Origin: Chloroflexota bacterium
Lineage (GTDB): Bacteria > Chloroflexota > Limnocylindria > Limnocylindrales > CSP1-4
NCBI GenBank assembly: GCA_003158295.1
Contig: PMIP01000059.1
Coordinates: 31,617-88,716 of the forward strand
Direction of reading: 5' to 3'
Length of the DNA stretch: 57,100 nucleotides
Below the pieces are notes generated by a model, which ran no database searches, had not been told where the DNA came from, and worked only from the letters and a program-made list of their open reading frames with translations. This document shows positions 2 to 15,067 of the stretch, piece after piece. The position numbers were made by a program, and so were the translations under genes. The first letter of the stretch is position 1. Every line of letters starts with the position of its first letter.

Positions 2-2581
2 TCGCCCGACTACACCGAATACGCGGTCATCGAGGTCAACCCGCGCGTCAGCCGCAGTTCGGCGCTGGCGTCCAAGGCGACGGGCTATCCGATCGCCCGC
101 GTGGCGGCGCAGATCGCAGCCGGGCGACGGCTGGCGGAGATCCCCAACGTCGTGACCGGGACCACGGTCGCGGCCTTCGAGCCTGCGCTGGACTACGTGG
201 TGGTCAAGCTGCCGCGCTTCCCGTTCGACAAGTTCCCCAAGGCCGACCGAACTCTCGGCAGCCAGATGAAAGCGACCGGCGAGGTGATGGCGATCGACCG
301 GACCTTCGGCTCGGCGCTGAACAAGGCGCTGCGGGCGCTCGAACAGGCGGGCGCGGGATTCCTGGCCGAAAACGCCGGCTGGACGGCGACGCTCGAGTAC
401 CTGATGGAGCCTGCCGCGGCGGAGCCGACCTTCGTCACGATGGATGGCACCGGACTCCTGTGCGAAGCGCGGGCCTACGCCGAACGAGCCGCCTATCCGA
501 TCGTTCTGAAGCGGTTCCTGGCCCCTTCCGACTCGCGGCTGTGGCGGATCCTCGCCCTGCTTCGGCGCGGAATGCCGGCCGAGACGATCCGGGGCGTGAC
601 CGGCATATCGCCGTGGTTCCTGTGGGAGTTCGAGCGGGTGATCGCGCTGGAGCGCGAAGTCCGGAAGATGGGGGCGCGGCTCGCGGATCCACGGGACGGG
701 GAAGCGGGCATTCTCCTGGCGACGGCAAAACGCGACGGCTTTGGGGATCGCGAGCTGGCGCAGATGGCCGGCGTCACGGCCGAGGCGGTACGCCTGGCGC
801 GGATGGAGCTGGGCATCGTCCCTGGCTACGCCATGGTGGACACGTGCGCGGCCGAGTTCGCCGCGGAGACGCCGTACTTCTACGCCACGTACGCCGCATC
901 GGGTTCCGAGCCGGAGCTGCCGCCCGTGGCGCGGCCGGCGGCGCTGGTCATCGGCTCCGGGCCGGTCCGGATAGGGCAGGGGATCGAGTTCGACTACTGC
1001 GCGGTCCAGGCCGCGGCCGAGCTTCGCGTCCAGGGCTGGCAGGCGGTCATGATCAATTCCAACCCGGAGACGGTCTCGACCGACTTCGACGCGTCGTCGC
1101 GCCTGTACTTCGAGCCGCTGGACCCGGAGAGCGTTCGTTCGGTCGTGGAGGCCGAAACGCCTGAGAGCGCGCCGGGCGAGCCCGCGACGCCGCTCCTCCC
1201 GGCCTTCGTCCAGTTCGGCGGCCAGACGCCTCTCAACCTGGCCGGGCCGCTCGCCGCGGCTGGGATCCCGCTCCTTGGCGCCAATCTCGAGACGATCGAC
1301 CAGGCTGAGGACCGTCTGCGCTTCGCCAACCTGGTCGAGTCGGTCGGCATCCCGCAACCGGAAGGCGGCATGGCCCGCTCGATCGAGGAAGCGCTGGCGC
1401 TGGCCGACCAGATCGGCTACCCGGTCATCGTTCGGCCGTCGTTCGTCATCGGCGGGCTGGCAATCGACTTCAGTTACTCGGCGTCCGACCTGGTGGACCA
1501 GCTGGCGCGCGCGACGGTCGTGGACCCAGACCGGCCGGTCCGGATCGACCGCTACCTCGAAGGGATCGAGGTGGACGTGGACGCCATCGCCGACGGCGAG
1601 ACGGTCCTGATCCCGGGACTGCTCGAGCACGTGGAGCGGGCGGGGGTCCATTCGGGCGACTCGGTGGGGATGTTCCCGCCGCAGACGGTCTCGGTCTCCG
1701 ACCAGGGGCTGATCGTCGACGCCATGGATCGGATCGTTCGGGCGCTTGACGTGCATGGGCTGGTCAACGCGCAGTTCATCGTCCGCGACGACGGCGTGTA
1801 CCTGATCGAGGTCAACCCGCGGGCCAGCCGGACGGTGCCGTTCATGAGCAAGGTGACCGGCGTCCCGATGGTCAAGCTCGCGGTCCGGATCGCCCTGGGC
1901 GAGACGCTCCGCGATATGGGCTGGGGGAACGGGCTCCTGGAGCCGCCGCCACTCGTCGCGGTCAAGGCGCCGGCCTTCTCCACGGCCAAGCTGCGTGGCG
2001 TGGACCCGTCGGTGGGCCCGGGGATGCAGTCCACCGGCGAGGTGATCGGTATCCACACGGACCCGCGCGTGGCGCTGGCCAAGGCAATGCAGGGCGCGGC
2101 CCTCATCCCGCCGCGGCCGGGAGCGGACGGTGCGCTGGCGTTGATCTCCGTCGCGGAACGGGATCACGGGGAGCTGCCGCGCGTGGCCCGGGCCCTGGCT
2201 CGGGCCGGCTACAGGTTCGCGGCCACTTCCGGGACGGCCGCGGAGCTGCGCGGGTTGGGCTACGAGGCGCAGGTCGTGGCCAAGGTGGGGGAGACGCCGG
2301 AGCCGGGTGGGGCGTCGATCCTGGATCTCATCGCCTCGGGCAAGGTCCGGCTCGTGGTCAACACGCCGTCGCCCAAGTCGGGGCCGGTTCGAGACGCCAT
2401 CGAGATCCGCCTGGCCGCCACCGCGGAAGGGATCCTGTGCCTGACCGCGATCGAGACCGCGGTTGCCGCCGCCGAGGCGCTGGACCCTGATCTGCTCGAA
2501 CGGCTGGCGGAGGTGCGCTCGCTCGGCGAATGGGTCCCCGATCCGGGCCGGCCGCGGGGCGTTGCCGGGGGCGTGGCCTGA
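2..2581 (+). CDS. carB: Carbamoyl-phosphate synthase large subunit, 5'-truncated at window edge
   Basis: Frame is open from base 2 (SPDYTEYAVIEVNPRVSRSSALASKATGYPIA). Oligomerisation region, second ATP-grasp half (VIGSGPVRIGQGIEFDYC, IEVNPRASRTVPF) and MGS-like C-terminus are present. Stop TGA at 2579-2581. Confidence 0.95.
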   Translation, partial: SPDYTEYAVIEVNPRVSRSSALASKATGYPIARVAAQIAAGRRLAEIPNVVTGTTVAAFEPALDYVVVKLPRFPFDKFPKADRTLGSQMKATGEVMAIDRTFGSALNKALRALEQAGAGFLAENAGWTATLEYLMEPAAAEPTFVTMDGTGLLCEARAYAERAAYPIVLKRFLAPSDSRLWRILALLRRGMPAETIRGVTGISPWFLWEFERVIALEREVRKMGARLADPRDGEAGILLATAKRDGFGDRELAQMAGVTAEAVRLARMELGIVPGYAMVDTCAAEFAAETPYFYATYAASGSEPELPPVARPAALVIGSGPVRIGQGIEFDYCAVQAAAELRVQGWQAVMINSNPETVSTDFDASSRLYFEPLDPESVRSVVEAETPESAPGEPATPLLPAFVQFGGQTPLNLAGPLAAAGIPLLGANLETIDQAEDRLRFANLVESVGIPQPEGGMARSIEEALALADQIGYPVIVRPSFVIGGLAIDFSYSASDLVDQLARATVVDPDRPVRIDRYLEGIEVDVDAIADGETVLIPGLLEHVERAGVHSGDSVGMFPPQTVSVSDQGLIVDAMDRIVRALDVHGLVNAQFIVRDDGVYLIEVNPRASRTVPFMSKVTGVPMVKLAVRIALGETLRDMGWGNGLLEPPPLVAVKAPAFSTAKLRGVDPSVGPGMQSTGEVIGIHTDPRVALAKAMQGAALIPPRPGADGALALISVAERDHGELPRVARALARAGYRFAATSGTAAELRGLGYEAQVVAKVGETPEPGGASILDLIASGKVRLVVNTPSPKSGPVRDAIEIRLAATAEGILCLTAIETAVAAAEALDPDLLERLAEVRSLGEWVPDPGRPRGVAGGVA

Positions 2582-2592
2582 GCGCGTCGCCG

Positions 2593-2668
2593 CGTCGCGA
2601 GCGCATCGCGGCGTCGCGAGCGCATCGCCGCGTCGCGAGCGCATCGCCGCGTCGCGAGCGCATCGTGT
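2593..2668. repeat. Four tandem copies of a 19-bp unit (CGTCGCGAGCGCATCGCCG) just after the carB stop
   Basis: Read directly: copies at 2593-2611, 2612-2630, 2631-2649 and 2650-2668. Copies 2 and 3 are identical; copy 1 has 1 mismatch and copy 4 has 2. The unit is not a multiple of 3, so it is non-coding. Confidence 0.9.
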
Positions 2669-2698
2669 CGGCCTTCAGTAACCTGATGGCACATTCTC

Positions 2699-4012
2699 GT
2701 GCCAGGTGCCTCGGTGTTTAGCCTCCCCAGTCTCCAGTTCAAGCTCTTCGGGTTCCCGGTCGCAATCGGGCTCGACTTCCTGCTGATCGCTTTCCTGTTT
2801 GGCTCTTTCCTGCCCGGCGAGTACCTGGTCATCTGGGTGGCGATCCTCGCCGGATCGATCCTGATTCACGAGTTGGGTCACGCCTTCGCATTGCGCCGGT
2901 ACGGCATCACGCCCCAGATCCGGCTGTGGGGCATGGGAGGGCTGACCACCTGGGGATTCGAGCTTCCTCCACGGAAGACGATCGTGGTCAGCGCCGCCGG
3001 GCCGTTGCTCGGTGTCGCGATTGGGCTGGCCGCCATGCAGGTGGAGCCCCGGATGCAGGCCGGCTCGACGGCCGAGTGGACGGTCCATATGGTCGTTTTG
3101 ATCAACCTGTACTGGGGACTGCTGAACCTGCTGCCCATCGCCGCCCTGGACGGCGGCAACATCACCACGAGTGCGTTCATGGTGGTGCTGGGGCCGAGGG
3201 GACGGGTGCCGGGGCTCATCTTCGTGGCCCTGTCGAGCCTCGTGATCGCCGCCATCGCCTTTGCGATCGGCTTCGCCTACCTGGCGGTGATCGTTGCGAT
3301 ATTCGCGCTCCTCAACCCAGTGCCCTACGTGGAGCTGCGCCGCATCCTGTCCAGCCGAGCCCACGCCTCGCCTGGACACGCGCCGGCGTCGTCTCGGACG
3401 CGGTCGGGGGACGGGCACTCGGGCGGCCGATCCGTGGCCGCCTCCCCGGCCGGGGCGCGCCGGGTCTTCGGCGAGGCCTACGTGGAGACGCTGGGGGATC
3501 GGGCCCGTGGCGTGGACCTGGACGATCTGGAGACCCGTCCGGCGCCGCTCACCTCGGACGTGGCCACGATGGTGGCGCGCGGCGACGACGCGGGCCTCGC
3601 GGCTCGCCTGACGGCCGAGGAGGACCCGCTCACGGTCCTCGCCATCGTCGCCAGGGTCGTGGACGGCAGGCGGATCGGCGGGGTGCTGAAGATGCTGAAG
3701 CTCGGAGATGGGCGTGGCGCGGATGGGCTGCTCAAGCTGCAGGTCGGGCTCTTCGCGCTCGGTCGGTTCGAGGATTCGATCGGTGCGGCCGGTGCGCTCG
3801 GCGCCGACGGCAGTTCCGCCAGCGCGTTGCTCGTGGCCCGCTGCGGCGCTCGGATGGGGGACCGCAAGCTCGTTCGCCAGGGGCTGGAGCGCGCGGTGGC
3901 ACTCGGCCATGTTTCTCTCTCGGACGCGGCGCTGGGTGACATCGCTCGAATGGGACCGGACGAGCGAGTGGCCCAGCTGCTCACGAGACTGCGGGCGAGC
4001 CAGACCGCCTGA
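2699..4012 (+). CDS. M50-family site-2 metalloprotease with an Ala/Arg-rich C-terminal soluble domain of about 200 aa
   Basis: HELGHAF (HExxH) lies in a TM helix and NLLPIAALDGGN is the second M50 signature. Multiple TM segments. GTG start as in the ORF track; an alternative GTG is at 2714. Confidence 0.85.
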   Translation: MPGASVFSLPSLQFKLFGFPVAIGLDFLLIAFLFGSFLPGEYLVIWVAILAGSILIHELGHAFALRRYGITPQIRLWGMGGLTTWGFELPPRKTIVVSAAGPLLGVAIGLAAMQVEPRMQAGSTAEWTVHMVVLINLYWGLLNLLPIAALDGGNITTSAFMVVLGPRGRVPGLIFVALSSLVIAAIAFAIGFAYLAVIVAIFALLNPVPYVELRRILSSRAHASPGHAPASSRTRSGDGHSGGRSVAASPAGARRVFGEAYVETLGDRARGVDLDDLETRPAPLTSDVATMVARGDDAGLAARLTAEEDPLTVLAIVARVVDGRRIGGVLKMLKLGDGRGADGLLKLQVGLFALGRFEDSIGAAGALGADGSSASALLVARCGARMGDRKLVRQGLERAVALGHVSLSDAALGDIARMGPDERVAQLLTRLRASQTA

Positions 4013-4156
4013 CCGAGTGGCATAGAGTCGAGAACCCGGTGTTCCGAATGGGCGGCCGCTGCTCGCACCACCCAGTTGCGTAGGCCGAGCCGGCTCAACG
4101 CCGCGTGCGATAGTTGTCGCGCGGCACGTTCCCGACATGTCAGCTAGGACGACCCC

Positions 4157-4738
4157 ATGGGCACCCGAATCTCGCATCTACCATTCGTTGCCGGCCTGCT
4201 CGCCTGCGCCGTGGTCATTGCCGGTTGTGGCGCGACCGCCGCGACGCCGACTTTCTCGGATCCAATCCCTGTCGTCGCGGCGCCCACCGTACCCTCGTGG
4301 TTCAACGTCCAGATGACGGACGTGACGACCGGCAAGCCGTTCAAGATCAGTGACTTCTCCGGCAAGGTCGTCCTGGTCGACACCATGGCGACGTGGTGCC
4401 CCACCTGCCAGGGCGAGATGAGCCAGGTCGGGCGGCTGCCCGGTCTCGTCGGCGCCGGCGCCAGCGACCTCGTGACGATCAGCCTCGACGTGGACCCCAA
4501 CGAGGACGCCACGATCCTCAAGAAGTTCGCCGCCGCCAACGGCTTCACCTGGCGGATCGCGGTTGCCCCAATCGAGGTCGGCCGGTTTCTCGAGATGAAC
4601 TACGACCAGCAGTACCTCAACCCGCCGCTTCAGCCGATGCTCTTCATCGACCGCACGGGCGGCGTCTACGGGCTCCCGTTCGGCATCAAGTCGGCCGAGA
4701 GCATCCAGAAGACCCTGGCTCAATACCTGGCCCAATAG
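4157..4738 (+). CDS. Secreted or lipoprotein thiol-disulfide oxidoreductase (TlpA/ResA-like thioredoxin fold)
   Basis: Signal peptide ending LLACAVVIAGCG. WCPTC active-site motif. TlpA-like context (FSGKVVLVDTMATWCPTCQGEM). Confidence 0.85.
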   Translation: MGTRISHLPFVAGLLACAVVIAGCGATAATPTFSDPIPVVAAPTVPSWFNVQMTDVTTGKPFKISDFSGKVVLVDTMATWCPTCQGEMSQVGRLPGLVGAGASDLVTISLDVDPNEDATILKKFAAANGFTWRIAVAPIEVGRFLEMNYDQQYLNPPLQPMLFIDRTGGVYGLPFGIKSAESIQKTLAQYLAQ

Positions 4739-4742
4739 CCAG

Positions 4743-5411
4743 ATGGATGTCGCGCTGACATCTTTCTCCTTCGGTCTGCTGGCCACGACCAGCCCTTGCC
4801 TGCTGCCGTTGTATCCCGGGTTCCTGGCGTACCTGAGCGGGCAGGCCGGATCGGAGCGAGGTCGGCAGCGCTACTTCCTGGGCATCTTCGTGCTCGCCGG
4901 CGTGATGACGATGATGGTCGTCCTGGGGGGCCTGATCGCCCTGCTGGCGGTATCGATCGGCCGGGCGCTGGCGATCCTGATACCCCTGGCCGTTGCCGCG
5001 ATCTTGATCCTGGGCGTGCTGCTTCTCCTGGATCGCAACCCCTTCTACCGGCTGCCCCAGATCAAGGTCCCGCTCCTGCGCCGCCCACTCCTAAACGCTT
5101 ACGTGTACGGGCTGCTGTACGGGCCGATCGCCATGCCGTGCTCCGGTGCGCTCGTCGTCGCCATCTTCGTCTACTCGTTCACGCTCGGCGAAGCGGTAAG
5201 CAAACTCTGGATCTTCCTCTGGTTCGGGCTCGGTTTCGGCGTGCCCCTACTGGCACTCTCCCTTCTCTCCGGGGCCCTGCAGCGCCAGCTGACCCGCTGG
5301 TTCGCGCTCCACAGCCGGGCCATCAACGTCGTCGGCGGCCTGCTGCTGATCGGGACCGCGATCTACGACCTGGCCGCGAACTGGGACGTGCTCGTGCTCT
5401 ACTACACCTGA
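4743..5411 (+). CDS. ccdA: Cytochrome c biogenesis / thiol reductant transfer membrane protein CcdA (DsbD family)
   Basis: LATTSPCLLPLYPGFLAYLSG and GPIAMPCSGALV are the two conserved Cys-containing motifs. Six predicted TM segments. Starts 4 nt after the thioredoxin stop. Confidence 0.85.
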   Translation: MDVALTSFSFGLLATTSPCLLPLYPGFLAYLSGQAGSERGRQRYFLGIFVLAGVMTMMVVLGGLIALLAVSIGRALAILIPLAVAAILILGVLLLLDRNPFYRLPQIKVPLLRRPLLNAYVYGLLYGPIAMPCSGALVVAIFVYSFTLGEAVSKLWIFLWFGLGFGVPLLALSLLSGALQRQLTRWFALHSRAINVVGGLLLIGTAIYDLAANWDVLVLYYT

Positions 5412-5506
5412 TCGAGACGACTTCGCGGCGGAGTACCGGAGGGTCGCTCCTGAGTGGCTGGAGACTCGGGCGGGACGGAACCGCCCGCTGCTTCGTCAGT
5501 CTGTTC

Positions 5507-6073
5507 ATGATGGAAGCGACCGTCGACAGGGGAATTGATGATGTGCTCGAGCAGGTAGGGGAGGCGCGCACGGACGAGCTCGACGAGACCTTCGCCACGC
5601 TCTACCGGGAGCGCTACCGCGATGTGTATCGCTACGCATTGCTGATGCTGAGGCGGGTCGAGGACGCAGAAGACGTCTCCGCCGAAGCGTTCCATCGAGC
5701 CTTCGCGGCCTGGCAAGCCGGCCATGGACCGGAGGGACGGGCCCTGCCGTGGCTGCTGCTCATCACCAGGCGGCTGGTCATCGACCGAACCCGGCGCCGG
5801 CGACTCCTGTCGTGGCTTCCGCTCGCGTCGTTGAGCCCCGCCCACGAGCCTTCCAGAGAGGCCGAGACCGGCCGGACGGAGTTCTGGCTCTGGTTCGAGC
5901 GGTTCGCTCGTGAGCTCTCGCAACGTCAGCGTGAAGTCTTGATCCTGCGCTACCAGCGTGACCTGGACGACGACCAGATCGGCGAGATCTTGGGGATCTC
6001 CGCCTCGGCCGTTCGATCGCTCGTCGCGCGAGCCTGCGCAGCCCTGCGCCGCAACCCGGAGATCTGGCAATGA
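5507..6073 (+). CDS. ECF-type RNA polymerase sigma-70 family factor
   Basis: Region 2 (YRYALLMLRRVEDAEDVSAEAFHRAFAAW, LLLITRRLVIDRTRRRR) and region 4 HTH (LSQRQREVLILRYQRDLDDDQIGEILGISASAVRSLVARA). First in-frame ATG pair is at 5507/5510. The longer track ORF from 4796 overlaps ccdA and is rejected. Confidence 0.85.
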   Translation: MMEATVDRGIDDVLEQVGEARTDELDETFATLYRERYRDVYRYALLMLRRVEDAEDVSAEAFHRAFAAWQAGHGPEGRALPWLLLITRRLVIDRTRRRRLLSWLPLASLSPAHEPSREAETGRTEFWLWFERFARELSQRQREVLILRYQRDLDDDQIGEILGISASAVRSLVARACAALRRNPEIWQ

Positions 6074-7275
6074 GTGAGAATCAGCATTCCGATGACGAGA
6101 TCCTGAATGGCGTGCGCCGCCGATTGGCCGGTGCCGAGCCGCTCATCCCGCAGCCGCCGGCGTTGGGGCCGGCCTTCACCGAGGCTGCCCAGGCGCGCCC
6201 GAGGGTGGTTGTGCGCAGCCGGCTTGGATTGGGCGGCTTCGCGCCGCTGGCTCTGATCGCGGCGCTTGTGGTGGTCGTCGTTGGAGTTGGCATAGGAAGC
6301 CAGACTCTCCAGGGAAATGGAACCGGCGCATTCGCCGGGACTCCAGGGCCCTCCGGATCGCCGGCGTCCCCCAACTACCCTGGGTTCGGCCTTTCCTATC
6401 AGCTGGTGCATCCGGCCGGCACCCAGGTGACCCCCGCCGAATTGGATGCGACCAAGGCGGTCCTGATCAAGCGCGCTGAGTCTTTGGGGCCGACGTCCTA
6501 TTCGGTCAATGAGGCGCCACCGGATGGGATCACGGTCTGGTTGGAAGGCGTCCCCGACACGGCGGAGGTGCGCACACTGATCGGCCAGACCGGACACCTC
6601 GAGTTCGTGCCGCTGCCGCCCGAGACATATGGAACCTCTGGCTCTCCAGGTCAGAAGATGCTGCCGACCACAGGCGAAACGATCGACCCGTCGCTGCCGG
6701 CGCAGTTCACAGGGGCGGACTTGGACCCGAGCCTGGTGTACATGCGCGAGGACACCGCGACGGGCGGATTGGCACTCGAGTTCGGGTTCAAGGAGCCGGC
6801 GGCCTCCGCGCTCGAGACCTGGTCCACGCAGCACGTAAACGACTTCTTCGCGATCGTTCTCGACGGGAAGGTCGTGTCCGTGCCCTACATCAAGTCGACG
6901 ATCATCGGCGGCAAGGGCGAGATCGCGGGCGACTTCACGACGCAAAGCCTCGCGGAGCTGGCCACGGTTCTGCAATCCGGCTGGCTGCCTTACCCGCTTC
7001 TCGGGGGCGAGACCGGGCCCATCGGCGGGCCGGTGGAGTCGGGCGTGCCGCTCCCTTCGGGCTTGGCGATCCCTTCGGACGTGCCGATGCACTCGGGCGC
7101 GCCGATGGAGTCGGGCGGGGCGATCCACTCGGCCGCGCCGATGGAGTCGGGCGTTGCGCTCCCTTCGGGCGTGCCGACTGGAACGTGCGGGCCGAGTGAG
7201 ATGTGCGTGCCGACTGGATCGGGTGGACCGAGCGCCATCGAGTCACCGCCGGCCGCCTCCAGCCCCCAGCTCTAG
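6070..7275 (+). CDS. Single-pass membrane protein with a SecD P1-head-like extracytoplasmic domain and a PxxSG-repeat tail; positional anti-sigma factor candidate
   Basis: ATGA overlap with the sigma stop (6070-6073). One TM (FAPLALIAALVVVVVGVGIG). VLIKRAESLGPTSYSVNEAPPDGITVWLEGVPDTAEVRTLIGQTGHLEFVPL and LDGKVVSVPYIKSTIIGGKGEIAGDFTTQSLAELATVLQSGWLPYPL resemble the E. coli SecD periplasmic P1 segments as I recall them ([30 protein letters not shown]...LEFRLV). No 12-TM SecDF core. Confidence 0.7.
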   Translation: MSENQHSDDEILNGVRRRLAGAEPLIPQPPALGPAFTEAAQARPRVVVRSRLGLGGFAPLALIAALVVVVVGVGIGSQTLQGNGTGAFAGTPGPSGSPASPNYPGFGLSYQLVHPAGTQVTPAELDATKAVLIKRAESLGPTSYSVNEAPPDGITVWLEGVPDTAEVRTLIGQTGHLEFVPLPPETYGTSGSPGQKMLPTTGETIDPSLPAQFTGADLDPSLVYMREDTATGGLALEFGFKEPAASALETWSTQHVNDFFAIVLDGKVVSVPYIKSTIIGGKGEIAGDFTTQSLAELATVLQSGWLPYPLLGGETGPIGGPVESGVPLPSGLAIPSDVPMHSGAPMESGGAIHSAAPMESGVALPSGVPTGTCGPSEMCVPTGSGGPSAIESPPAASSPQL

Positions 7276-8651
7276 GCCCTCTCGACGAGGGAGGGGCTTT
7301 CCGAAGCCACCGTGGTAGCCGCCAGCGTCCCCTCCGCGTCCGCGACCGCGGCGGCCACTCGGTCGGTCCCGCGGAACCAGGTCCAGAGCAGGGCCGTGGC
7401 GGTCGTGTACAGCACGATGATGGTGACGAAGTCCACTGCGTAGCCGGCGGTGAATCCGAGCGACGCCTGGAGAGCGCCGTAGTACGGCGACGCGATCGCC
7501 CACCCGAGCGACCACAGCATCGTCATTCCGGCTGCCAGCGTGGCTCGCTCCGCCGGGGAGACGCGCTCCATCGCGAACGCGTCGAAGATCGGGCTGCCCG
7601 CGTTCATCAGCGAGTTGCGCACGGCCAGGGCGATGATCACGGTCCACAGCATCGGGGAGAAGCCGAGGACGACGAGGAACGGGATGCTGGCCCCCTGCAC
7701 CAGCACGATCGATCCGATGCGGCCGAATCGGCTGGCGAGAGCCGGCTGAGCCAGGATCGCGGCCGCGGTGCCGAGGCTGGTCACGGCGAAGATCACGTTC
7801 ACTTCTGTGAGACCCAGGCCGAACTTGTTCTCGATGAAGACGTTCAGGAAGGGGATCAGCTGGCCGGCACCCAGGGACGTCAGGAATCCCGGCAGAAGCA
7901 GCCGGAAGAAGAGGCGCTTATCCAGGATGACGATGCCGAATCGGCTCGCCCCGGCGGCCGGCGCTCGACCGGCCGCCGGCCTGTCGCTGGTGAGCAGCCA
8001 CACGGTCCCCAGGGAAAGGACACCCAGGATCGCCACTCCGGACAGGAGGATCTGATAGGGCGCCGCGGCTGAACCGAGGTTCAGGCGAGAGGCGATTTCG
8101 GGGGCCAGTGCTCCACCCGCGAGGGCGGCCACCAGGCCCGTAAGAAACCCAATGGCGGACCAGATGGCGAAGTACTCGTTGCGCTGGTCCGGCCGGGTGT
8201 GCTCGGCGATGAACGGGATCTGGACCACGCTGACTGCCATGGACCCGGCGCCGAGCGCGGCTACACCCACGAACAGCAGCGGCAACTGGCCTGGCAGAAA
8301 CGCGAGTAGCGCGACCGCCACCAGGACCATGCCCGCGGCCATCACGCTGCGTCTTCCGAACCTGTCGGAGAGCGCGCTGGCCGGGAGGGCCGTCAGGACG
8401 CCTGCCAGCGAGTAGGCAGCCAGCAGCCAGCCGATCGTCCACTTCAATCCGATCGACTCCAGGTAGAGGTTGAAGTCGATGAAGTAGAGGCTGATCGCCG
8501 CCCCAAAGACGACCGTGGTCAGCAGGAAGATCCGGGCGTCACGGCTGAAGCCGGTGAAGCTGCGGATGTACCTCGCGATTGCGCCAGCCACCGTTCCGGC
8601 AGACCTCTCGCTCAGCGGGCCGGATCGAGAACGTTGCGCTCTTCCTCGCAC
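7272..8651 (-). CDS. MFS transporter
   Basis: About 12 TM segments. MFS loop motif LSDRFGRRSVM between TM2 and TM3. An alternative GTG start at 8591 would remove the overlap with the upstream mini-ORF. Confidence 0.85.
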   Translation of the reverse strand: MRGRAQRSRSGPLSERSAGTVAGAIARYIRSFTGFSRDARIFLLTTVVFGAAISLYFIDFNLYLESIGLKWTIGWLLAAYSLAGVLTALPASALSDRFGRRSVMAAGMVLVAVALLAFLPGQLPLLFVGVAALGAGSMAVSVVQIPFIAEHTRPDQRNEYFAIWSAIGFLTGLVAALAGGALAPEIASRLNLGSAAAPYQILLSGVAILGVLSLGTVWLLTSDRPAAGRAPAAGASRFGIVILDKRLFFRLLLPGFLTSLGAGQLIPFLNVFIENKFGLGLTEVNVIFAVTSLGTAAAILAQPALASRFGRIGSIVLVQGASIPFLVVLGFSPMLWTVIIALAVRNSLMNAGSPIFDAFAMERVSPAERATLAAGMTMLWSLGWAIASPYYGALQASLGFTAGYAVDFVTIIVLYTTATALLWTWFRGTDRVAAAVADAEGTLAATTVASESPSLVERA

Positions 8652-8827
8652 AGGCTACGCCCGACGACGATCAGGAACGCTCCTATCCGGAGGTGGAGTC
8701 CACGGATCCGGTACGTCCTTGAGCCCGCTCCCTTACGGCTCATGCGGTAGGCGGCGGCCTCGGCGCGGAGCTCCGCATGCCGCTGGGCTATGTACGTTGA
8801 TCGCTGCTCCGGCGTGTCAGGCCACAT
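8612..8827 (-). CDS. Mini-protein (71 aa), Arg/Ala-rich helix followed by an RxxGxxLRIGxxL hydrophobic tail
   Basis: ATG is preceded by GGAGG at 9-nt spacing (ctGGAGGactctaccaATG). Lies between the ArsR-type regulator and the MFS gene. Resembles a second mini-ORF at 22104-22298. Confidence 0.5.
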   Translation of the reverse strand: MWPDTPEQRSTYIAQRHAELRAEAAAYRMSRKGAGSRTYRIRGLHLRIGAFLIVVGRSLCEEERNVLDPAR

Positions 8828-8842
8828 TGGTAGAGTCCTCCA

Positions 8843-8884
8843 GTGTTAGTAGTCCGAATGACATGTGTTAGTTGTGCATCTAAC
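8843..8884. promoter_or_regulatory. Cluster of GTGTTAG / CTAAC half-sites upstream of the mini-ORF/MFS unit (candidate ArsR-type operator)
   Basis: GTGTTAG at 8843-8849 and 8865-8871, inverted CTAAC at 8880-8884. The same pentamer recurs upstream of the regulator gene at 10023-10053. Confidence 0.4.
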
Positions 8885-8922
8885 TCGGGAAGTTCGGGAG
8901 TTGGTCATGGCGATCCTCGGGG

Positions 8923-10011
8923 TCAGTGCGCCAGGTAGGCGCGAAGCTCCACGCCGGCTTCGTCGGCGCGGTCGTGGCGGAGGCTGTAGTAGGTCATGTT
9001 GCCCTCGTTGGTCATCGTGACCAGGCCGGCGCTGCGGAGCACGGCCAGGTGATGCAGGATCGTGGGCTTGCGCAGATCCAGCTCGTTCGCGATCTCCGTC
9101 AGGTAGCGGTCACCTTCGGCCAGGAGCTTCAGGATGCGCAGGCGGCTCTCGTCGCCCAGGGCGCGGTAGAGGCGAATGGTCGAATTGGGTGGAGTCAGTC
9201 GGTCCGCCGATCCGAGCGACGAGTCCGCGATTGGGTAGCAGATCAGCTGCACGTCGCCGACCTTGGTCAGCGAGTTGTACGGGCGGCCGAAGTAGCTGGG
9301 GGTCAGGACTATGCGGCGGATGCGCTGCTCGGGTATGACTCGGACCCCATTTGTCGCCCGCTCGATGAACCCGAGGGGGTCGCCGACGATGTCGTCGCCA
9401 CGGCGGCCGGCCACGTCGCGCTCCAACATTCGACCGATGCGGGTCTCGATCGTCTCGTAGCGCGGCAGCCAGAACTCGACGATGCGCCGGACCGCCAGGG
9501 TCATGTCGGCGATTGGTCCAGCGAGGACGGCATGGCCTTTGGTCGATTCGAGCCGGGCCTGGAGCTCGACCAAGGCCTCCTGATCGCCATCTACTGCCCG
9601 GCGAGTGAGCGCGCCTAGATCCGCGTCTTCGAGCAGTTCGCCCGCCATGATCTCGGTCAGATCTCGGTCGGAAAGCGCGTCGATGGCTTCCACGACGTCG
9701 CGGGCGGTGCGAATCTCCGGCCTGCCGACGAGCATGCGGCTGATCTCGAGGACGAAGCCACCGCAGGCACCGACGCATTCGTCTCCGGTGGTCTCGGCCT
9801 TGAGGGCCGCGCGCGACTCTTCCAGCCAGCGCTGGTCCTCTGCCAGGAGCTCGTTGGCCTCGCCGCAGTCATCACAGGCGCTGGCCAGGAAGTCGTAGCC
9901 GGTTCGGACATCAAGCTCAACGACCGGAAGCTGGGCAGCCGCGATCCCCGGCCGGACGAGGCCGCTCTGTCTCTGGGGATTGGCTCGGCTGGGATTCCGG
10001 GTCGCTGCCAT
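8923..10011 (-). CDS. ArsR/SmtB-family winged-helix regulator with an N-terminal domain of about 270 aa and unknown function
   Basis: C-terminal IRLYRALGDESRLRILKLLAEGDRYLTEIANELDLRKPTILHHLAVLRSAGLV is a classic ArsR HTH. I do not recognise a motif in the N-terminal part. Confidence 0.8.
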   Translation of the reverse strand: MAATRNPSRANPQRQSGLVRPGIAAAQLPVVELDVRTGYDFLASACDDCGEANELLAEDQRWLEESRAALKAETTGDECVGACGGFVLEISRMLVGRPEIRTARDVVEAIDALSDRDLTEIMAGELLEDADLGALTRRAVDGDQEALVELQARLESTKGHAVLAGPIADMTLAVRRIVEFWLPRYETIETRIGRMLERDVAGRRGDDIVGDPLGFIERATNGVRVIPEQRIRRIVLTPSYFGRPYNSLTKVGDVQLICYPIADSSLGSADRLTPPNSTIRLYRALGDESRLRILKLLAEGDRYLTEIANELDLRKPTILHHLAVLRSAGLVTMTNEGNMTYYSLRHDRADEAGVELRAYLAH

Positions 10012-10257: not shown

Positions 10258-11583
10258 ATGACCATCCCGAGCGTCAGGTTCACAGACGAACGCCTCTCCA
10301 ACGGCCTTCGCCTGATCATCTCGGAAGACCACCTGGCGCCGATCGTGGCGGTCAACATCTGGTACAACGTCGGCTCCAAGCACGAGGTCGCGGGCAAGAC
10401 CGGCTTCGCGCATCTGTTCGAGCACGTCATGTTCCAGGGCTCCGGCCACGTGGCCAAGACCGAGCACATGGCCCTCGTGCAGGCCGCGGGCGGGACCCTC
10501 AACGGCACCACTTTCTTCGACCGCACCAACTACTTCGAGACGATGCCCAGCCACCAGCTCGAGCTGGCGCTCTGGCTCGAGGCGGACCGGATGGCGACGC
10601 TCCTGGACGCACTCAACCAGGAAAACCTGGACAACCAGCGCGACGTCGTCAAGAACGAGAAGCGGTCCTCGTACGACAACCGGCCCTATGGCGACTGGTT
10701 CCACAAGCTGCAGGCACACCTCTTCCCGGCGGACCATCCGTATCACCACCCCACGATCGGGTCGATGGAGGATCTGGACGCGGCGTCGCTGGAGGACGTG
10801 GCCACGTTCTTCCGGACTTACTACGCCCCCAACAACGCGGTCCTCTCCGTCGTGGGGGACGTGGATCCGGCGCAGGCCCGGGCCTGGGTGGAGCGCTACT
10901 TCGGCGCCATTCCGGCGAACCCCGCCATCCCACCGCTGGCCGACATGAGCGTTCCGCCGGTATTGGGCGCCGAGTCTCGCGAGGTGGTGCAGGACCGGGT
11001 TCCGCTGCCGCGCCACTTCTTCGGCTACCGGGCGCCCTGCCTGGGAGACCCCCGCTTCGACGCCCTTGAGGTTGCCGCTCAGATCCTTGCCGGTGGGAAG
11101 GGGAGCCGGCTCTACCGGCGCCTGGTGCGAGAAGAGAAGATCGCCCAGGATGTCTCATTCTTCCCTCTGGGACTCGTTGGTGGCGCCTCTATCGCGGCCG
11201 GTCAGGCCACCGTCCGCCCGGGCGTTGACCCGGCGGTGGTGGAGCGCGCATTCGAGGAGGAACTGGAGCGGCTGGGACGTGAGCCGGTCACCGACGATGA
11301 GCTGGCTCGGGCCCGTGCCCTGATCGAGACTTACGAGCTGGAGGCTCTGCAGCGGGTCGACGAACGCGCCGATCGGCTGTCCATGTACGCCACGCTGCTC
11401 GACGATCCGGAGATGATCAACCGCCAGCTCGGCCGGTACCTGGCCGTGGGCAAGGCCGAGATCCAGGCGGCCGCCGCGGAGGTGCTCCGCCCCGAGAACC
11501 GGGTCGTTCTGACCTACATGCCCGCTGCGGGCGCCGGGGACGGCGCCATCGGCGGCGCCCCTGACGAGGAGACGGCGGCATGA
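10258..11583 (+). CDS. M16 (pitrilysin) family zinc peptidase, catalytic subunit
   Basis: Inverted zinc motif HxxEH in GFAHLFEHVMFQG. Downstream NGTTFFDRTNYF and the conserved Glu region. SD gaggaa lies 9 nt upstream. Confidence 0.9.
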   Translation: MTIPSVRFTDERLSNGLRLIISEDHLAPIVAVNIWYNVGSKHEVAGKTGFAHLFEHVMFQGSGHVAKTEHMALVQAAGGTLNGTTFFDRTNYFETMPSHQLELALWLEADRMATLLDALNQENLDNQRDVVKNEKRSSYDNRPYGDWFHKLQAHLFPADHPYHHPTIGSMEDLDAASLEDVATFFRTYYAPNNAVLSVVGDVDPAQARAWVERYFGAIPANPAIPPLADMSVPPVLGAESREVVQDRVPLPRHFFGYRAPCLGDPRFDALEVAAQILAGGKGSRLYRRLVREEKIAQDVSFFPLGLVGGASIAAGQATVRPGVDPAVVERAFEEELERLGREPVTDDELARARALIETYELEALQRVDERADRLSMYATLLDDPEMINRQLGRYLAVGKAEIQAAAAEVLRPENRVVLTYMPAAGAGDGAIGGAPDEETAA

Positions 11584-13007
11584 CGCTCGAGCAGATCCTG
11601 GCCGAGCGACCGTCTCCGGGCCAACCCCGAACTTACCGCTTCCCGGCCTTCGAGCGGGCGGTGCTGCCGTCGGGCCTGCAGGTGCTCACGGTCCACGTTC
11701 CGGGCCGGCCGCTCGTTTCGGCGAATCTGGTCTTCCTCCGGGGCGCCGGCGACGAGGCCGGGGAGATCGGGGGAGCCACTGTTCTCGCGGCCCGGGCGAT
11801 GACCGAGGGAACGGAGCGCTACCCGGGCGTGGAGCTGATCGAGGCCGGGGAGCGCCTGGGCGCGACTCTCCACGTCGAGGCGTCATGGGACGCCTTCGTG
11901 GCCGCGGTGGAGGTTGCGGCGCCACGCCTGGAGGCCGCCCTCGAGCTGCTGGCGGAACTGGTGGAGCGGCCCACGTTCCCGGAGCAGGACGTGGCTCGCC
12001 TGCGGGACGAGCGTCTCAACGACCTAATGCAGGCGAAAGCCGACCCGCGCCGGCGCGCGGAGCGGGCCTTCGGGGCGACGATCTACACGTCGGACTCGCC
12101 CTACTCGCGGCCGGCCGGCGGCGACGAAGAGTCGGTCGCCGGGCTCACTCCCGAAGTCTTGCGAAGAGTCCACTCATCGATCCTCGCGCCGGATCGGGCG
12201 GCGCTGATCGTGGGCGGGGATCTCACCGGCGTCGCCATCCCGAGTCTCGCCGAGCGAGTCCTCGGATCGCTCGGGAGTGGCGCGGCGTCGCTTGCCCCGG
12301 CGGCACCGCCCAACGCCACCTCGGCCGTGTCACGACCGATCGTCCGGTTCTACCATCGGCCGGGCTCGGTACAGACCGAGCTGCGGATCGGCCACGTCGG
12401 CCTTCCGCGGCGGATCCCGGACTTCCATGGCGTCGCGGTGATGTCGGCGATCCTGGGCGGCCTCTTCAACTCGCGGCTGCAGATGAACCTGCGGGAGGAG
12501 AAGGGCTACACCTACGGCGTGGGGGCGGGCTTTGACATGAGGCGGGGCGCGGGCCCCTTCGCCGTCCGAACCGCCGTTCAGACGGCAGTGACCGTGCCGG
12601 CGATCCTCGAGACGCTCTCCGAGCTGCGTCGGATCCGCGAGACCGAGGTAACGAAGGCAGAACTGGCGGCCGCGCGCGACTACCTGGTTGGAGTCTTCCC
12701 GCTCCGCTTCGAGACGCCCGGCGCCGTAGTCGGAGCCCTGGGCGGGCTCTACGTGCACCAGTTGCCCGATGACGAGCTGTCCCGGTACCGCGACGCGATC
12801 GAGGCTGTCACGATCGCCGACGTGCAGGCCGCTGCCCGTGAGCACATCGATCTCGACCGAATGGCGATCGTTGCGGTCGGCGACGCGGATGTCGTCGGCG
12901 GAGAGCTCGAGTCGGCCGGCCTCGGTGAGATCGAACTGATCGCCGAGGAGCCCCCCGCGGCCGGTTCGGACGACGCCGCGGACGAGTCTGACGAGGAGGG
13001 CGAATGA
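11580..13007 (+). CDS. M16 family peptidase, non-catalytic partner (no HxxEH)
   Basis: ATGA overlap with the upstream M16 gene. M16 C-terminal-type fold motifs (LNSRLQMNLREEKGYTYGV). Lacks the zinc motif. Confidence 0.85.
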   Translation: MTLEQILAERPSPGQPRTYRFPAFERAVLPSGLQVLTVHVPGRPLVSANLVFLRGAGDEAGEIGGATVLAARAMTEGTERYPGVELIEAGERLGATLHVEASWDAFVAAVEVAAPRLEAALELLAELVERPTFPEQDVARLRDERLNDLMQAKADPRRRAERAFGATIYTSDSPYSRPAGGDEESVAGLTPEVLRRVHSSILAPDRAALIVGGDLTGVAIPSLAERVLGSLGSGAASLAPAAPPNATSAVSRPIVRFYHRPGSVQTELRIGHVGLPRRIPDFHGVAVMSAILGGLFNSRLQMNLREEKGYTYGVGAGFDMRRGAGPFAVRTAVQTAVTVPAILETLSELRRIRETEVTKAELAAARDYLVGVFPLRFETPGAVVGALGGLYVHQLPDDELSRYRDAIEAVTIADVQAAAREHIDLDRMAIVAVGDADVVGGELESAGLGEIELIAEEPPAAGSDDAADESDEEGE

Positions 13008-13744: not shown

Positions 13745-15067
13745 GTGCGGGCCATGGACAGCACCACGAGCGGGCTCGGCTCAGAGGGGCCCGCCAACCT
13801 GCCGCCGGGCTTTGACGCGTCCGCGACGACGCCGGTGGATCGCGCCACGGCCGTCGCGGCGCTCAGCCAGGCCGACGGCCTGATGGAGCAGAGTGAGCCG
13901 GAGCAGGCGCTCGCCCTGTACGCCAGAGCGGCGGGGACGGCCGATCGCGACGTCTCGGCCGCCGGCCACTACGGGATGGGCAACGCCCTGTACCGGATGG
14001 ACCGCGAGGGCGAGGCGCGCCAGGCCTGGGAGCGTGCCACCGGTCTCGGCGAGACTCCCGTGGCGTATCGGGCCTGGCGTCAGGTGGCCGCGGCCCTGGT
14101 CCGCGAGGGAAACCTGCGCGGCGCCCTGGACGCGTACCGGCAATGCGAAAAGCGCGCGCCGCGCGAGGACCGCGCCGAGATCGCGTCTCGGTTGGGCTGG
14201 CTGAGCAAGGAAGTCGGCAACACCGGCGCCGCGACCAAGTACTTCGCCCGCAGCCGCGGTGACGCGGCGCCGCCGTTCATGACGTACCTGATCATCGCCG
14301 TCACGGTGGTGGCGTCGATATCGGCCCTGTCGGATACCAGCGGCAGCCTCGGGGGTCAGCTCGAGCTGGACAAGCTGGGCATCGCGCACGGCGAGCTCTA
14401 CCGACTCTTCAGCGTCACCCTGGTCCACGGCAGCTACATCCACCTGGCCTTCAACATGTACGCGATGTGGTACGCGGGGCAGCTCGTCGAGCGCATGTAC
14501 GGGTCGTGGTTGCTGCTGGCGTTCTACGTGATTTGCGCGGCGGGAGGGTCGATCCTCAGCTACGCGTTTGGATCCATCGTGCCCAGTGTCGGGGCTTCGG
14601 GGGCGATCTTCGGGCTCTTCGGCGTCGTCCTCGTGGCGACTCGGTTCCACCGCGCGATCCTGGATCAGCAATCGCGGATGATCGCGTCGCAGGTCGGCCT
14701 ACTGATCGTGTTGAACCTGATCCTCGGCTTCTCCGGTGTCCTGAACGTCGACAACTACGCTCACGTCGGAGGCCTTCTGGCGGGACTCTGGTTGGCCCTG
14801 GTCATCGCCCCGGCACAGGTGCCGACCCTCGCGTCGCTATGGCAGACCCCCCGCGGCGGCAGTGGCGGAGCTCGGATACTCGCCATCCGCGTTCTGGGCG
14901 TGGGCGCCCTGATCGCGGTTCTGGGGGTGGGCGTCGCGATAGGCACGAGCCGGTGGCAGGGTGACCCGGTCTATCGGCACTTCTACGGTGCCGCCGGCAC
15001 GGCCGTCGATCGATCAGAGGCGGTCACCGCGCCTGAGCTGCCGAGCGTTTCTCTGACAATCCGGTAG
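13745..15067 (+). CDS. Rhomboid-family intramembrane serine protease with an N-terminal TPR-like domain
   Basis: LVHGSYIHLAFNMYAMW, the catalytic GASGAIFGLFG and HVGGLLAG motifs. N-terminal cytoplasmic TPR-like repeats of about 170 aa. An alternative ATG is at 13754. Confidence 0.85.
   Translation: MRAMDSTTSGLGSEGPANLPPGFDASATTPVDRATAVAALSQADGLMEQSEPEQALALYARAAGTADRDVSAAGHYGMGNALYRMDREGEARQAWERATGLGETPVAYRAWRQVAAALVREGNLRGALDAYRQCEKRAPREDRAEIASRLGWLSKEVGNTGAATKYFARSRGDAAPPFMTYLIIAVTVVASISALSDTSGSLGGQLELDKLGIAHGELYRLFSVTLVHGSYIHLAFNMYAMWYAGQLVERMYGSWLLLAFYVICAAGGSILSYAFGSIVPSVGASGAIFGLFGVVLVATRFHRAILDQQSRMIASQVGLLIVLNLILGFSGVLNVDNYAHVGGLLAGLWLALVIAPAQVPTLASLWQTPRGGSGGARILAIRVLGVGALIAVLGVGVAIGTSRWQGDPVYRHFYGAAGTAVDRSEAVTAPELPSVSLTIR

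Follow-up and report, generated by a model that had tools for sequence, protein, structure and literature searches.

Introduction

Pairs of extracytoplasmic function (ECF) sigma factors and anti-sigma factors are a major bacterial signalling route, in which the ectodomain of the anti-sigma factor sets what is sensed. In the canonical arrangement, a single-pass membrane protein is encoded directly 3′ of the ECF sigma gene, and GGGAC-N17-CGTC is the layout of an ECF promoter; autoregulatory promoters of this class have AC in the −35 and CGT in the −10 motif. The class I anti-sigma domain comprises three to four helices over ~70–90 amino acids, often with an HxxxCxxC motif. Among intramembrane proteases, SpoIVFB, whose cytoplasmic domain is a CBS domain, has a sigma-factor precursor as its substrate, and the substrates of PDZ-less site-2 proteases (S2Ps) outside sporulation are largely unknown. 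Emerging secretory proteins, still unfolded, are contacted by the P1 domain of the translocase subunit SecD. Here we analyzed a 57,100-nucleotide stretch of contig PMIP01000059.1 (hereafter, the window) from a Chloroflexota bacterium of the class Limnocylindria. In it, an ECF sigma factor gene is coupled to the gene of a single-pass membrane protein with a SecD-type P1 domain (hereafter, the partner), and genes for an M50 site-2-type protease, a thioredoxin-fold lipoprotein (Trx) and a CcdA-type transporter precede the pair.

Like SigW/RsiW, SigE/RseA, SigV/RsiV and mycobacterial SigD/RsdA, this locus combines a sigma factor of regions 2 and 4 with a translationally coupled partner that has a short cytoplasmic N-terminus, a single transmembrane (TM) segment and an extracytoplasmic putative sensor; a predicted GGxAC...CGTC-type promoter lies directly upstream, consistent with autoregulation. 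Unlike in those pairs, the cytoplasmic part of the partner measures ~56 amino acids, with one conserved helix and neither a class I domain nor a zinc motif, and the predicted sensor is a SecD P1 domain, which DsbA-like and LysM domains accompany in some orthologues. Relative to the classical ECF pairs, the novelty would be this SecD-derived sensor, the minimal lineage-specific cytoplasmic module and the PDZ-less protease, equipped with a TPR-like domain, that is usually encoded next to the pair. Neither M50 nor SecD, thioredoxin or Chloroflexi is mentioned in the ECF re-classification paper, and full-text literature searches, incomplete in coverage, returned no description of a P1-type anti-sigma factor or of comparable S2P–ECF synteny. 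An ectodomain derived from SecD P1, in many cases joined to a DsbA-like oxidase, would suggest that the export of proteins or the formation of disulfides is monitored directly, and the recurrent gene neighborhood suggests a candidate for the natural substrate of a PDZ-less protease of the MjS2P/SpoIVFB type outside sporulation. The compact promoter–sigma–partner unit could also be transferred to a cultivable host, which matters because knowledge of the class comes chiefly from metagenome-assembled genomes.

Results

The sigma gene and its partner form the best-defined unit of the locus

The sigma and partner genes, which are preceded by a conserved ECF-type promoter element, are the best-defined unit of the locus. 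They are the last two of five same-strand genes with a G+C content of ~65–72%, whose intergenic gaps are, in order, 144, 4 and 95 nt, followed by a 4-nt ATGA overlap between sigma and partner. The genes and the conserved elements 5′ of them, for which promoter function is predicted from conservation, are as follows.

2679–2686, plus strand: TAACCTGA, −10-like element 5′ of the M50 gene
2699–4012, plus strand: M50 site-2-type intramembrane metalloprotease, 437 amino acids (Pfam M50, motifs and fold)
4074–4086, plus strand: AGTTGCGTAGGCC, conserved element 5′ of Trx
4157–4738, plus strand: Trx, a TlpA/ResA-like thioredoxin-fold lipoprotein, 193 amino acids (Pfam Redoxin and AhpC-TSA)
4743–5411, plus strand: CcdA-type membrane thiol-electron transporter, 222 amino acids (Pfam DsbD_TM)
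5471–5501, plus strand: CGGGACGGAACC...CTGCTTCGTCAGTC, putative ECF-type promoter, a conserved motif
5507–6073, plus strand: ECF (group 4) sigma factor, ATG at 5507, 188 amino acids (Pfam Sigma70_r2 and Sigma70_r4)
6070–7275, plus strand: partner, a single-pass membrane protein and putative anti-sigma factor, 401 amino acids (Pfam SecD_1st and SecDF_P1_head)

The five genes, their coordinates, gaps and domains agree with a preliminary description of this DNA, and profile searches placed all five proteins above the Pfam gathering score, which served as the cut-off for domain calls. For comparison, we annotated in a single run 33 Limnocylindria loci, the window counted, several of which are near-identical copies. 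We assembled these loci by looking up the gene context of partner and Trx homologues and by scanning GTDB and metagenomes with an M50 profile; the scans were dominated by distant M50 domains, with at least eight loci of the clade from GTDB and at least eight from metagenomes. Homologues of the partner, the M50 protease and Trx come nearly all from metagenome-assembled genomes labelled Candidatus Limnocylindrales or Chloroflexi/Chloroflexota.

The sigma factor matched Sigma70_r2 (39.6 bits; cut-off 24) and Sigma70_r4 (45.7 bits; cut-off 24.1) in Pfam, and the sigma70-ECF model TIGR02937 in NCBIfam (73.5 bits; cut-off 42.9). Consisting of regions 2 and 4 only, it has the size (~170–200 amino acids) and domain content of an ECF (group 4) sigma factor, and its nearest solved structures are SigW, SigE and SigL. 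It reached no named ECF subgroup, the best specific NCBIfam model, SigE-fam_strep (TIGR02983), scoring 92.9 bits against a cut-off of 141.55. Without exception, the loci show a 4-nt overlap between the sigma and partner genes.

The putative promoter is a 31-nt element 5′ of the sigma ATG that reads CGGGAC(G)GAAC - N10 - CTGCTTCGTCAAT, or CGGGAC-N17-CGTCA in its longer motif form. It comprises a −35 GGGAC, a 17-nt spacer and a −10 CGTC, with the ATG ~9 nt further on, and it keeps a constant distance from the ATG in 13 distinct loci, irrespective of gene order or upstream neighbor. Because the −10 ends ~9 nt ahead of the ATG, the layout implies a predicted sigma–partner mRNA that is leaderless or nearly so. 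A weight matrix built from the orthologous promoters scored 47.8 bits at 5471–5501, and the runner-up in the window reached 1.9 bits, which is chance level. The matrix, which is over-fitted and may let weak sites escape, thus detected no further sigma-type promoter in the 57 kb. With no second site, the sigma factor is predicted to transcribe nothing but its own bicistron within the window, although this is a soft negative, and no regulon can be proposed. The predicted GGGAC-N17-CGTC promoter is consistent with autoregulation of the sigma gene. General scans for sigma-70 consensus promoters and for terminators over 2400–7600 gave nothing exceeding shuffled expectation. An inverted repeat, GGGCGG...CCGCCC at 5466–5489, overlaps the −35 region in the window and in close relatives, but deeper relatives do not share it; for both reasons we rejected it as a ccdA terminator.

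The partner carries interchangeable ectodomains on a conserved cytoplasmic module

The partner starts with a 56-residue N-terminus, followed by a single TM segment at approximately residues 57–75 (6238–6294), whose glycines are invariant or near-invariant. In the AlphaFold2 (AF2) model, the N-terminus forms a conserved, amphipathic cytoplasmic helix at residues 8–21 (6091–6132) and then a proline-rich stretch. The motif SDDEIL.GVRRRL.G.EPL.P.PPAW is conserved, and ~40 N-terminal amino acids are kept among orthologues. This module is confined to Limnocylindria; a phmmer search with residues 1–56 against 1.84 billion representative proteins returned 11 matches, all from the same family, and linked it to no known anti-sigma domain.

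On the other side of the membrane, the partner matched SecDF_P1_head (60.3 bits; cut-off 27) and also SecD_1st in Pfam. The P1 domain spans residues 106–316 (6385–7017), is modelled by AF2 with a predicted local distance difference test (pLDDT) score >90, and superposes in Foldseek on the isolated P1 domain of Thermus SecDF (3aqo; TM-score 0.74–0.77), with 5xap also matched. Like SecD, it contains the full P1 base and head, and its nearest relatives are SecD proteins of Limnocylindria, at 40–46% identity. Unlike true SecD homologues, which have the 12-TM SecDF membrane domain (PF02355), the partner lacks this domain and crosses the membrane with one TM segment, and its gene is coupled to that of a sigma factor; it is thus no SecD translocase subunit.

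The ectodomain varies among orthologues. It consists of P1 alone in the window, P1 with a DsbA-like Thioredoxin_4 domain bearing an intact CxxC (L006, L012 and 18 proteins), P1 with DsbA-like and LysM domains (L015 and L094), or two LysM repeats only (L014). The DsbA-like CxxC domains on many orthologous partners reinforce the thiol-redox theme of the preliminary description. In the window, P1 is followed by a disordered tail (7018–7272) of Pro/Ser/Gly hexapeptide repeats that has no Pfam match at E ≤ 1. Its DNA at 7018–7182 (residues ~317–371) repeats an 18-nt unit in ~8.6 copies, with additional 36- and 54-nt periods. The tail also contains a cysteine pair, C373/C379 (CGPSEMC), present in none of 19 close homologues; a DsbA-like domain occupies that position in sister lineages.

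ATGA coupling, one TM segment and a variable ectodomain on a conserved cytoplasmic module are the structural features of the functional class of TM anti-sigma factors. These features, with the overlap found everywhere, support the earlier reading of the two proteins as a sigma/anti-sigma-type pair, and we consider it probable from the sequence that the partner acts as the anti-sigma factor of the adjacent ECF sigma factor.

A PDZ-less site-2 protease usually adjoins the pair

The M50 protein scored 39.4 bits with Peptidase_M50 (cut-off 27.2). Its core (approximately residues 10–205) contains HELGH at residues 57–61 (2867–2881) and NLLPIAALDGG at residues 143–153 (3125–3157), the HExxH and NxxPxxxLDG motifs of family M50 site-2 proteases. 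Across 65 M50 homologues, H57, E58, H61 and LDGG are invariant and the remaining motif positions nearly so. A PDB sequence search returned MjS2P (3b4r; E = 2.7e-14), SpoIVFB (8vjl; E = 2.4e-5) and RseP (7w6x; E = 0.22), and the AF2 model (pLDDT 85) matched 3b4r in Foldseek with a TM-score of 0.71. No PDZ domain was matched in Pfam, and the RseP model TIGR00054 gave 20.7 bits, far below its cut-off of 147.55.

Like SpoIVFB and MjS2P (group III), the enzyme combines a compact six-helix core, in which both motifs lie, with an additional domain beyond the final TM helix, and PDZ is lacking. At this place, which in SpoIVFB is that of the cytoplasmic CBS domain, a basic disordered linker leads into a conserved, all-helical domain of ~190 residues (3446–4009), for which Foldseek gave weak TPR-like matches only and Pfam gave no family at E ≤ 1 and no CBS match. 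Unlike SpoIVFB, the protease therefore has a TPR-like rather than a CBS domain, no SpoIVFA/BofA-type inhibitors are evident, and its presumed substrate would be a TM anti-sigma factor and not a pro-sigma factor. Judging by its position and by the basic charge of the linker, the TPR-like domain is probably cytoplasmic, and from there it could contact the sigma/anti-sigma complex.

The preliminary description had placed the enzyme in the RseP/RasP paradigm. The proposed logic, in which an M50 protease would free an ECF sigma factor by cutting its anti-sigma factor within the TM segment, is indeed shared with RseP/RasP; the protease itself is not of that type, as it lacks PDZ and is closest, among solved structures, to MjS2P and SpoIVFB. 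Two further differences are that its gene, unlike rseP and rasP, usually adjoins the sigma pair and that no site-1 protease was identified.

Upstream of the M50 gene, TA[AC]CCT occurs in 21 of 22 distinct loci, whether carB or the partner gene precedes; in the remaining one (L097), the contig begins at the gene. In the window, TAACCT at 2679 is the sole copy on either strand of the 57 kb. Since the element is kept whichever gene precedes it, the M50 gene appears to have its own, probably housekeeping, promoter. Most of the carB–M50 spacer is filled by a 19-nt tandem repeat, GAGCGCATCGCCGCGTCGC (2580–2665; 4.5 copies, 95% matches), which lies immediately 5′ of TAACCTGA; L001, L008 and L091 have a single copy of a related sequence.

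A thioredoxin–CcdA pair accompanies some of the loci

Trx matched Redoxin (37.9 bits; cut-off 26.6) and AhpC-TSA. With a lipobox (VIAGC, Cys24), a thioredoxin fold and WCPTC at residues 80–84, it is a CxxC protein anchored outside the membrane, as in the TlpA/ResA class; the NCBIfam matches to TlpA and ResA are weak and below cut-off, too low to call it an orthologue of either. More than 100 Trx orthologues, 52–96% identical, occur in Limnocylindria. CcdA matched DsbD_TM (PF02683; 40 bits, cut-off 27.1) over residues 5–208 and has the two "PC" cysteines of the CcdA/DsbD family, C19 and C133. The two genes are always contiguous in related loci, with a gap of 4–5 nt.

As in TlpA/ResA–CcdA systems, a CxxC lipoprotein gene is followed after 4 nt by that of a six-TM CcdA with two essential cysteines. 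Unlike in those systems, the recurrent placement is beside an S2P gene and an ECF pair, and the 57 kb showed no motif of ResB/ResC or of c-type cytochromes. The latter result, from a motif search of likely genes for the CcsA/ResC WWD motif and CxxCH, with no profile search for ResB, agrees with the earlier remark that ResB/ResC genes are absent nearby. ResB/ResC were not called in syntenic relatives either, and the pair does not qualify as part of System II cytochrome c maturation.

The element upstream of Trx has a GTTGCG/GTTGCA core in the window and L091–L094, and also in L176 despite a different upstream gene; the spacer 5′ of Trx measures 144–200 nt in the five M50-linked loci. The sigma-type promoter has no counterpart 5′ of Trx–CcdA. 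All five Trx homologues with examined context sit in the same genomic slot, beside M50 and/or sigma–partner. The thiol-redox association thus recurs by fusion, as a DsbA-like domain on the partner, or by adjacency, as Trx–CcdA, including in one locus without M50.

Three separable modules share one genomic slot

All 33 loci occupy a single slot, with carB on one side and a minus-strand gene for a major facilitator superfamily (MFS) transporter on the other. The slot contains three separable modules (M50; Trx–CcdA; sigma–partner) in many combinations.

M50 – Trx – CcdA – sigma – partner: the window, L091
M50 – sigma – partner: L001/L011, L004, L006, L007, L008, L012, L097, L174
M50 – second M50 with TPR – sigma – partner: L099, L175
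sigma – partner – M50: L014, L015, L096, L098, L100
sigma – partner – M50 – Trx – CcdA: L094, probably L093 (sigma end lost at the contig end)
M50 – Trx – CcdA, then contig end: L092
M50 alone, or M50 and its paralogue, without sigma–partner: L013, L018, L095, L016
Trx – sigma – partner – Trx – CcdA, without M50: L176

M50 adjoins sigma–partner in most of these loci, on either side of it. The conservation of M50, sigma and partner as neighbors, which the preliminary description had proposed to check, was therefore found, in two gene orders and with all five genes also in L091 and L094. Sigma–partner was seen only in this slot, in all nine context look-ups of P1 and Trx homologues and in every sigma-bearing locus from the M50-seeded scans.

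Trx–CcdA is present in 7 of the 33 loci. In a neighbor-joining tree of M50, these loci are interspersed among loci without the pair, and Trx divergence roughly parallels M50 divergence; repeated loss or exchange of Trx–CcdA is thus likelier than one recent insertion. We ruled out that the pair is a 1.45-kb insertion unique to the window, as it stands beside M50 in L091–L094 and occurs also in L176. A 7-nt direct repeat, GAGTGGC, at 4015–4021 and 5452–5458 marks the edges of the segment missing in close relatives without Trx–CcdA; a third copy lies at 3966, the right side in L091 reads GAGTGTC, and the repeat may reflect chance or recombination microhomology.

Two further arrangements were observed. 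The second M50, a Peptidase_M50B-like paralogue in which TPR repeats are clear, is encoded at 1960–3606 in L175, 4348–6057 in L099 and 2414–4057 in L016; in L175 and L099 it has the first M50 on one side and the sigma gene on the other. L176 encodes, at 4609–9276, a second WCPTC lipoprotein, sigma, a partner with apparently two tandem P1 domains and LysM, and then Trx–CcdA; its partner is split over two gene calls, possibly by a frameshift.

Discussion

A proposed membrane-tethered sigma factor under a SecD-derived sensor

We propose, with moderate confidence in the explanation as a whole, that the locus encodes an autoregulated sigma factor with a coupled anti-sigma partner, in which P1 serves for sensing, M50 is the candidate cutting enzyme and a link to thiol chemistry exists. 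The N-terminal helix of the partner and its proline-rich stretch would hold the sigma factor inactive at the membrane. The P1 domain, recruited from the lineage's own SecD, would sense load or damage in exported, unfolded or mis-oxidized proteins; both this signal and the anti-sigma function are inferred. Removal of the partner would free the sigma factor, which would then transcribe its own bicistron and amplify the operon. M50 is the best candidate for cutting the glycine-rich TM segment of the partner, and Trx–CcdA, or the fused DsbA-like domain in sister lineages, would tie the module to extracytoplasmic thiol chemistry. That this M50 is the cognate protease of the partner is a tentative assignment, which we regard as possible but short of probable, and we have still less confidence that Trx–CcdA belongs to the signalling circuit rather than being a co-located redox function.

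Several observations weigh against parts of this proposal. The partner N-terminus matched no anti-sigma domain in Pfam (E ≤ 1) or NCBIfam and has no Cys/His motif in residues 1–56; being a single helix of ~14 residues without a domain match, it falls outside the class I anti-sigma domain (ASD/ZAS). The M50 gene follows a conserved element of its own rather than a sigma-type promoter, it is retained in the slot without sigma–partner in four loci (L013, L016, L018 and L095), and it is missing from L176, where sigma–partner and Trx–CcdA are present. Most relatives have a slot without Trx–CcdA. A site-1 protease was not identified. Among 72 more distant M50 relatives (Acidimicrobiia, Myxococcota, Planctomycetota and others), none has an adjacent ECF sigma gene, and two have one at 4–5 kb. 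Moreover, since every related locus lies at one syntenic position, adjacency may be inherited and not selected.

The main rival explanation is passive synteny, under which the carB–MFS slot simply tolerates the gain and loss of envelope genes, M50 and Trx–CcdA are unrelated to sigma–partner, and another protease or another form of sigma control operates. The existence of every pairwise combination of modules and of several single-module slots would fit this explanation, as would the independent upstream elements and the lack of M50–sigma linkage outside this class. In addition, genes for a rhomboid protease with N-terminal TPR repeats (13745–15067, plus strand) and a pair of M16 peptidases (10258–11583 and 11580–13007, plus strand) lie 3–8 kb downstream, in the same order in relatives and as equally conserved neighbors; these enzymes could be alternative proteases for the partner. 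However, sigma–partner adjoins M50 everywhere except in L176 and has been seen in no other slot, it switches sides of M50 yet remains adjacent, and the redox association recurs in two independent forms, fusion and adjacency. On balance, we rate passive synteny as somewhat unlikely. At the opposite extreme, the preliminary description regarded all five genes as one dedicated, self-contained cassette that senses envelope secretion or oxidative-folding stress, with RseP/RasP-type proteolysis and Trx–CcdA as an integral part. The identical order in L091, the sigma–partner–M50–Trx–CcdA order in L094 and probably L093, the position of Trx–CcdA directly after M50 wherever both occur and the DsbA-like domains of orthologous partners speak for such a cassette. 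We nevertheless consider it unlikely: the modules have three separate conserved upstream elements with a sigma-type promoter before the sigma gene only, M50 may stand alone or be absent, most relatives lack Trx–CcdA, whose scattered distribution in the M50 tree implies repeated loss or gain, and the protease is of the MjS2P/SpoIVFB type. Thus, of the earlier notion of a dedicated stress module working by regulated intramembrane proteolysis, the synteny, the sigma/anti-sigma reading and the redox link stand, whereas the single five-gene unit and the RseP/RasP type do not.

The two remaining alternatives concern single components. The partner might be a membrane-anchored extracytoplasmic chaperone or oxidoreductase that is the first target of the sigma factor and not its anti-sigma factor, with the sigma factor set by transcription or by another regulator. 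Its very short cytoplasmic part, devoid of a known anti-sigma domain, and the plausible catalytic or chaperone roles of P1 and DsbA-like domains in their own right agree with such a role. Against it stand the strict 4-nt coupling in all loci, in the canonical anti-sigma arrangement, and the retention of the N-terminal module even where LysM replaces the ectodomain, which suggests that the cytoplasmic segment is selected and linked to sigma. A conserved cytoplasmic module that carries interchangeable sensor domains argues that the partner is more than a target gene, and we therefore hold the alternative to be very unlikely. Trx–CcdA, for its part, could serve housekeeping reduction (cytochrome c maturation, copper-center assembly or methionine-sulfoxide repair) with no role in signalling. 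This is compatible with TlpA and ResA as the nearest curated models, the SCO1/SenC names that some database sources give to homologues, the upstream element of the pair and its presence in many Limnocylindria. It fits less well with the lack of WWD motifs and CxxCH proteins in the window, with the placement of all five examined Trx homologues and with a CxxC motif in place of the CxxxC of Sco-type proteins, and appears fairly unlikely to us.

Returning to the proposal of an autoregulated sigma factor with a P1-bearing anti-sigma partner, its fullest form would be a hitherto undescribed Limnocylindria pathway for secretion and oxidative-folding stress. In this form, the anti-sigma factor would use its P1 domain, joined in sister lineages to a DsbA-like oxidase, to monitor unfolded proteins leaving the translocon, a dedicated SpoIVFB-type M50 would cut it without a site-1 step, the cytoplasmic TPR-like domain of this protease would recognize the sigma/anti-sigma complex, and TlpA–CcdA would supply a reductive arm. 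This extended version is speculative and, in our view, improbable; if true, it would add a sensing principle new to ECF signalling and, for site-2 proteases that lack PDZ, a new class of substrate.

Other genes around the slot

Upstream of carB, relatives encode several PIN/PhdYeFM toxin–antitoxin pairs and a TIR-domain gene (L001, 761–4186; L008, 89–1674; L006, 299–1609). The window starts inside carB, hence this region is out of view here. On the far side of the MFS gene, the minus strand at 8923–10011 encodes a 362-residue protein with an ArsR-type helix-turn-helix at its C-terminus only (residues 285–335) and a long uncharacterized N-terminal region; most relatives keep it next to the MFS gene. 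A small open reading frame (8612–8827, minus strand; 71 amino acids) without a Pfam match lies between the genes of the MFS transporter and of the ArsR-family protein. It is missing in L008, and gene calls of 68–74 amino acids occupy this position in L001, L004, L007, L091 and L175.

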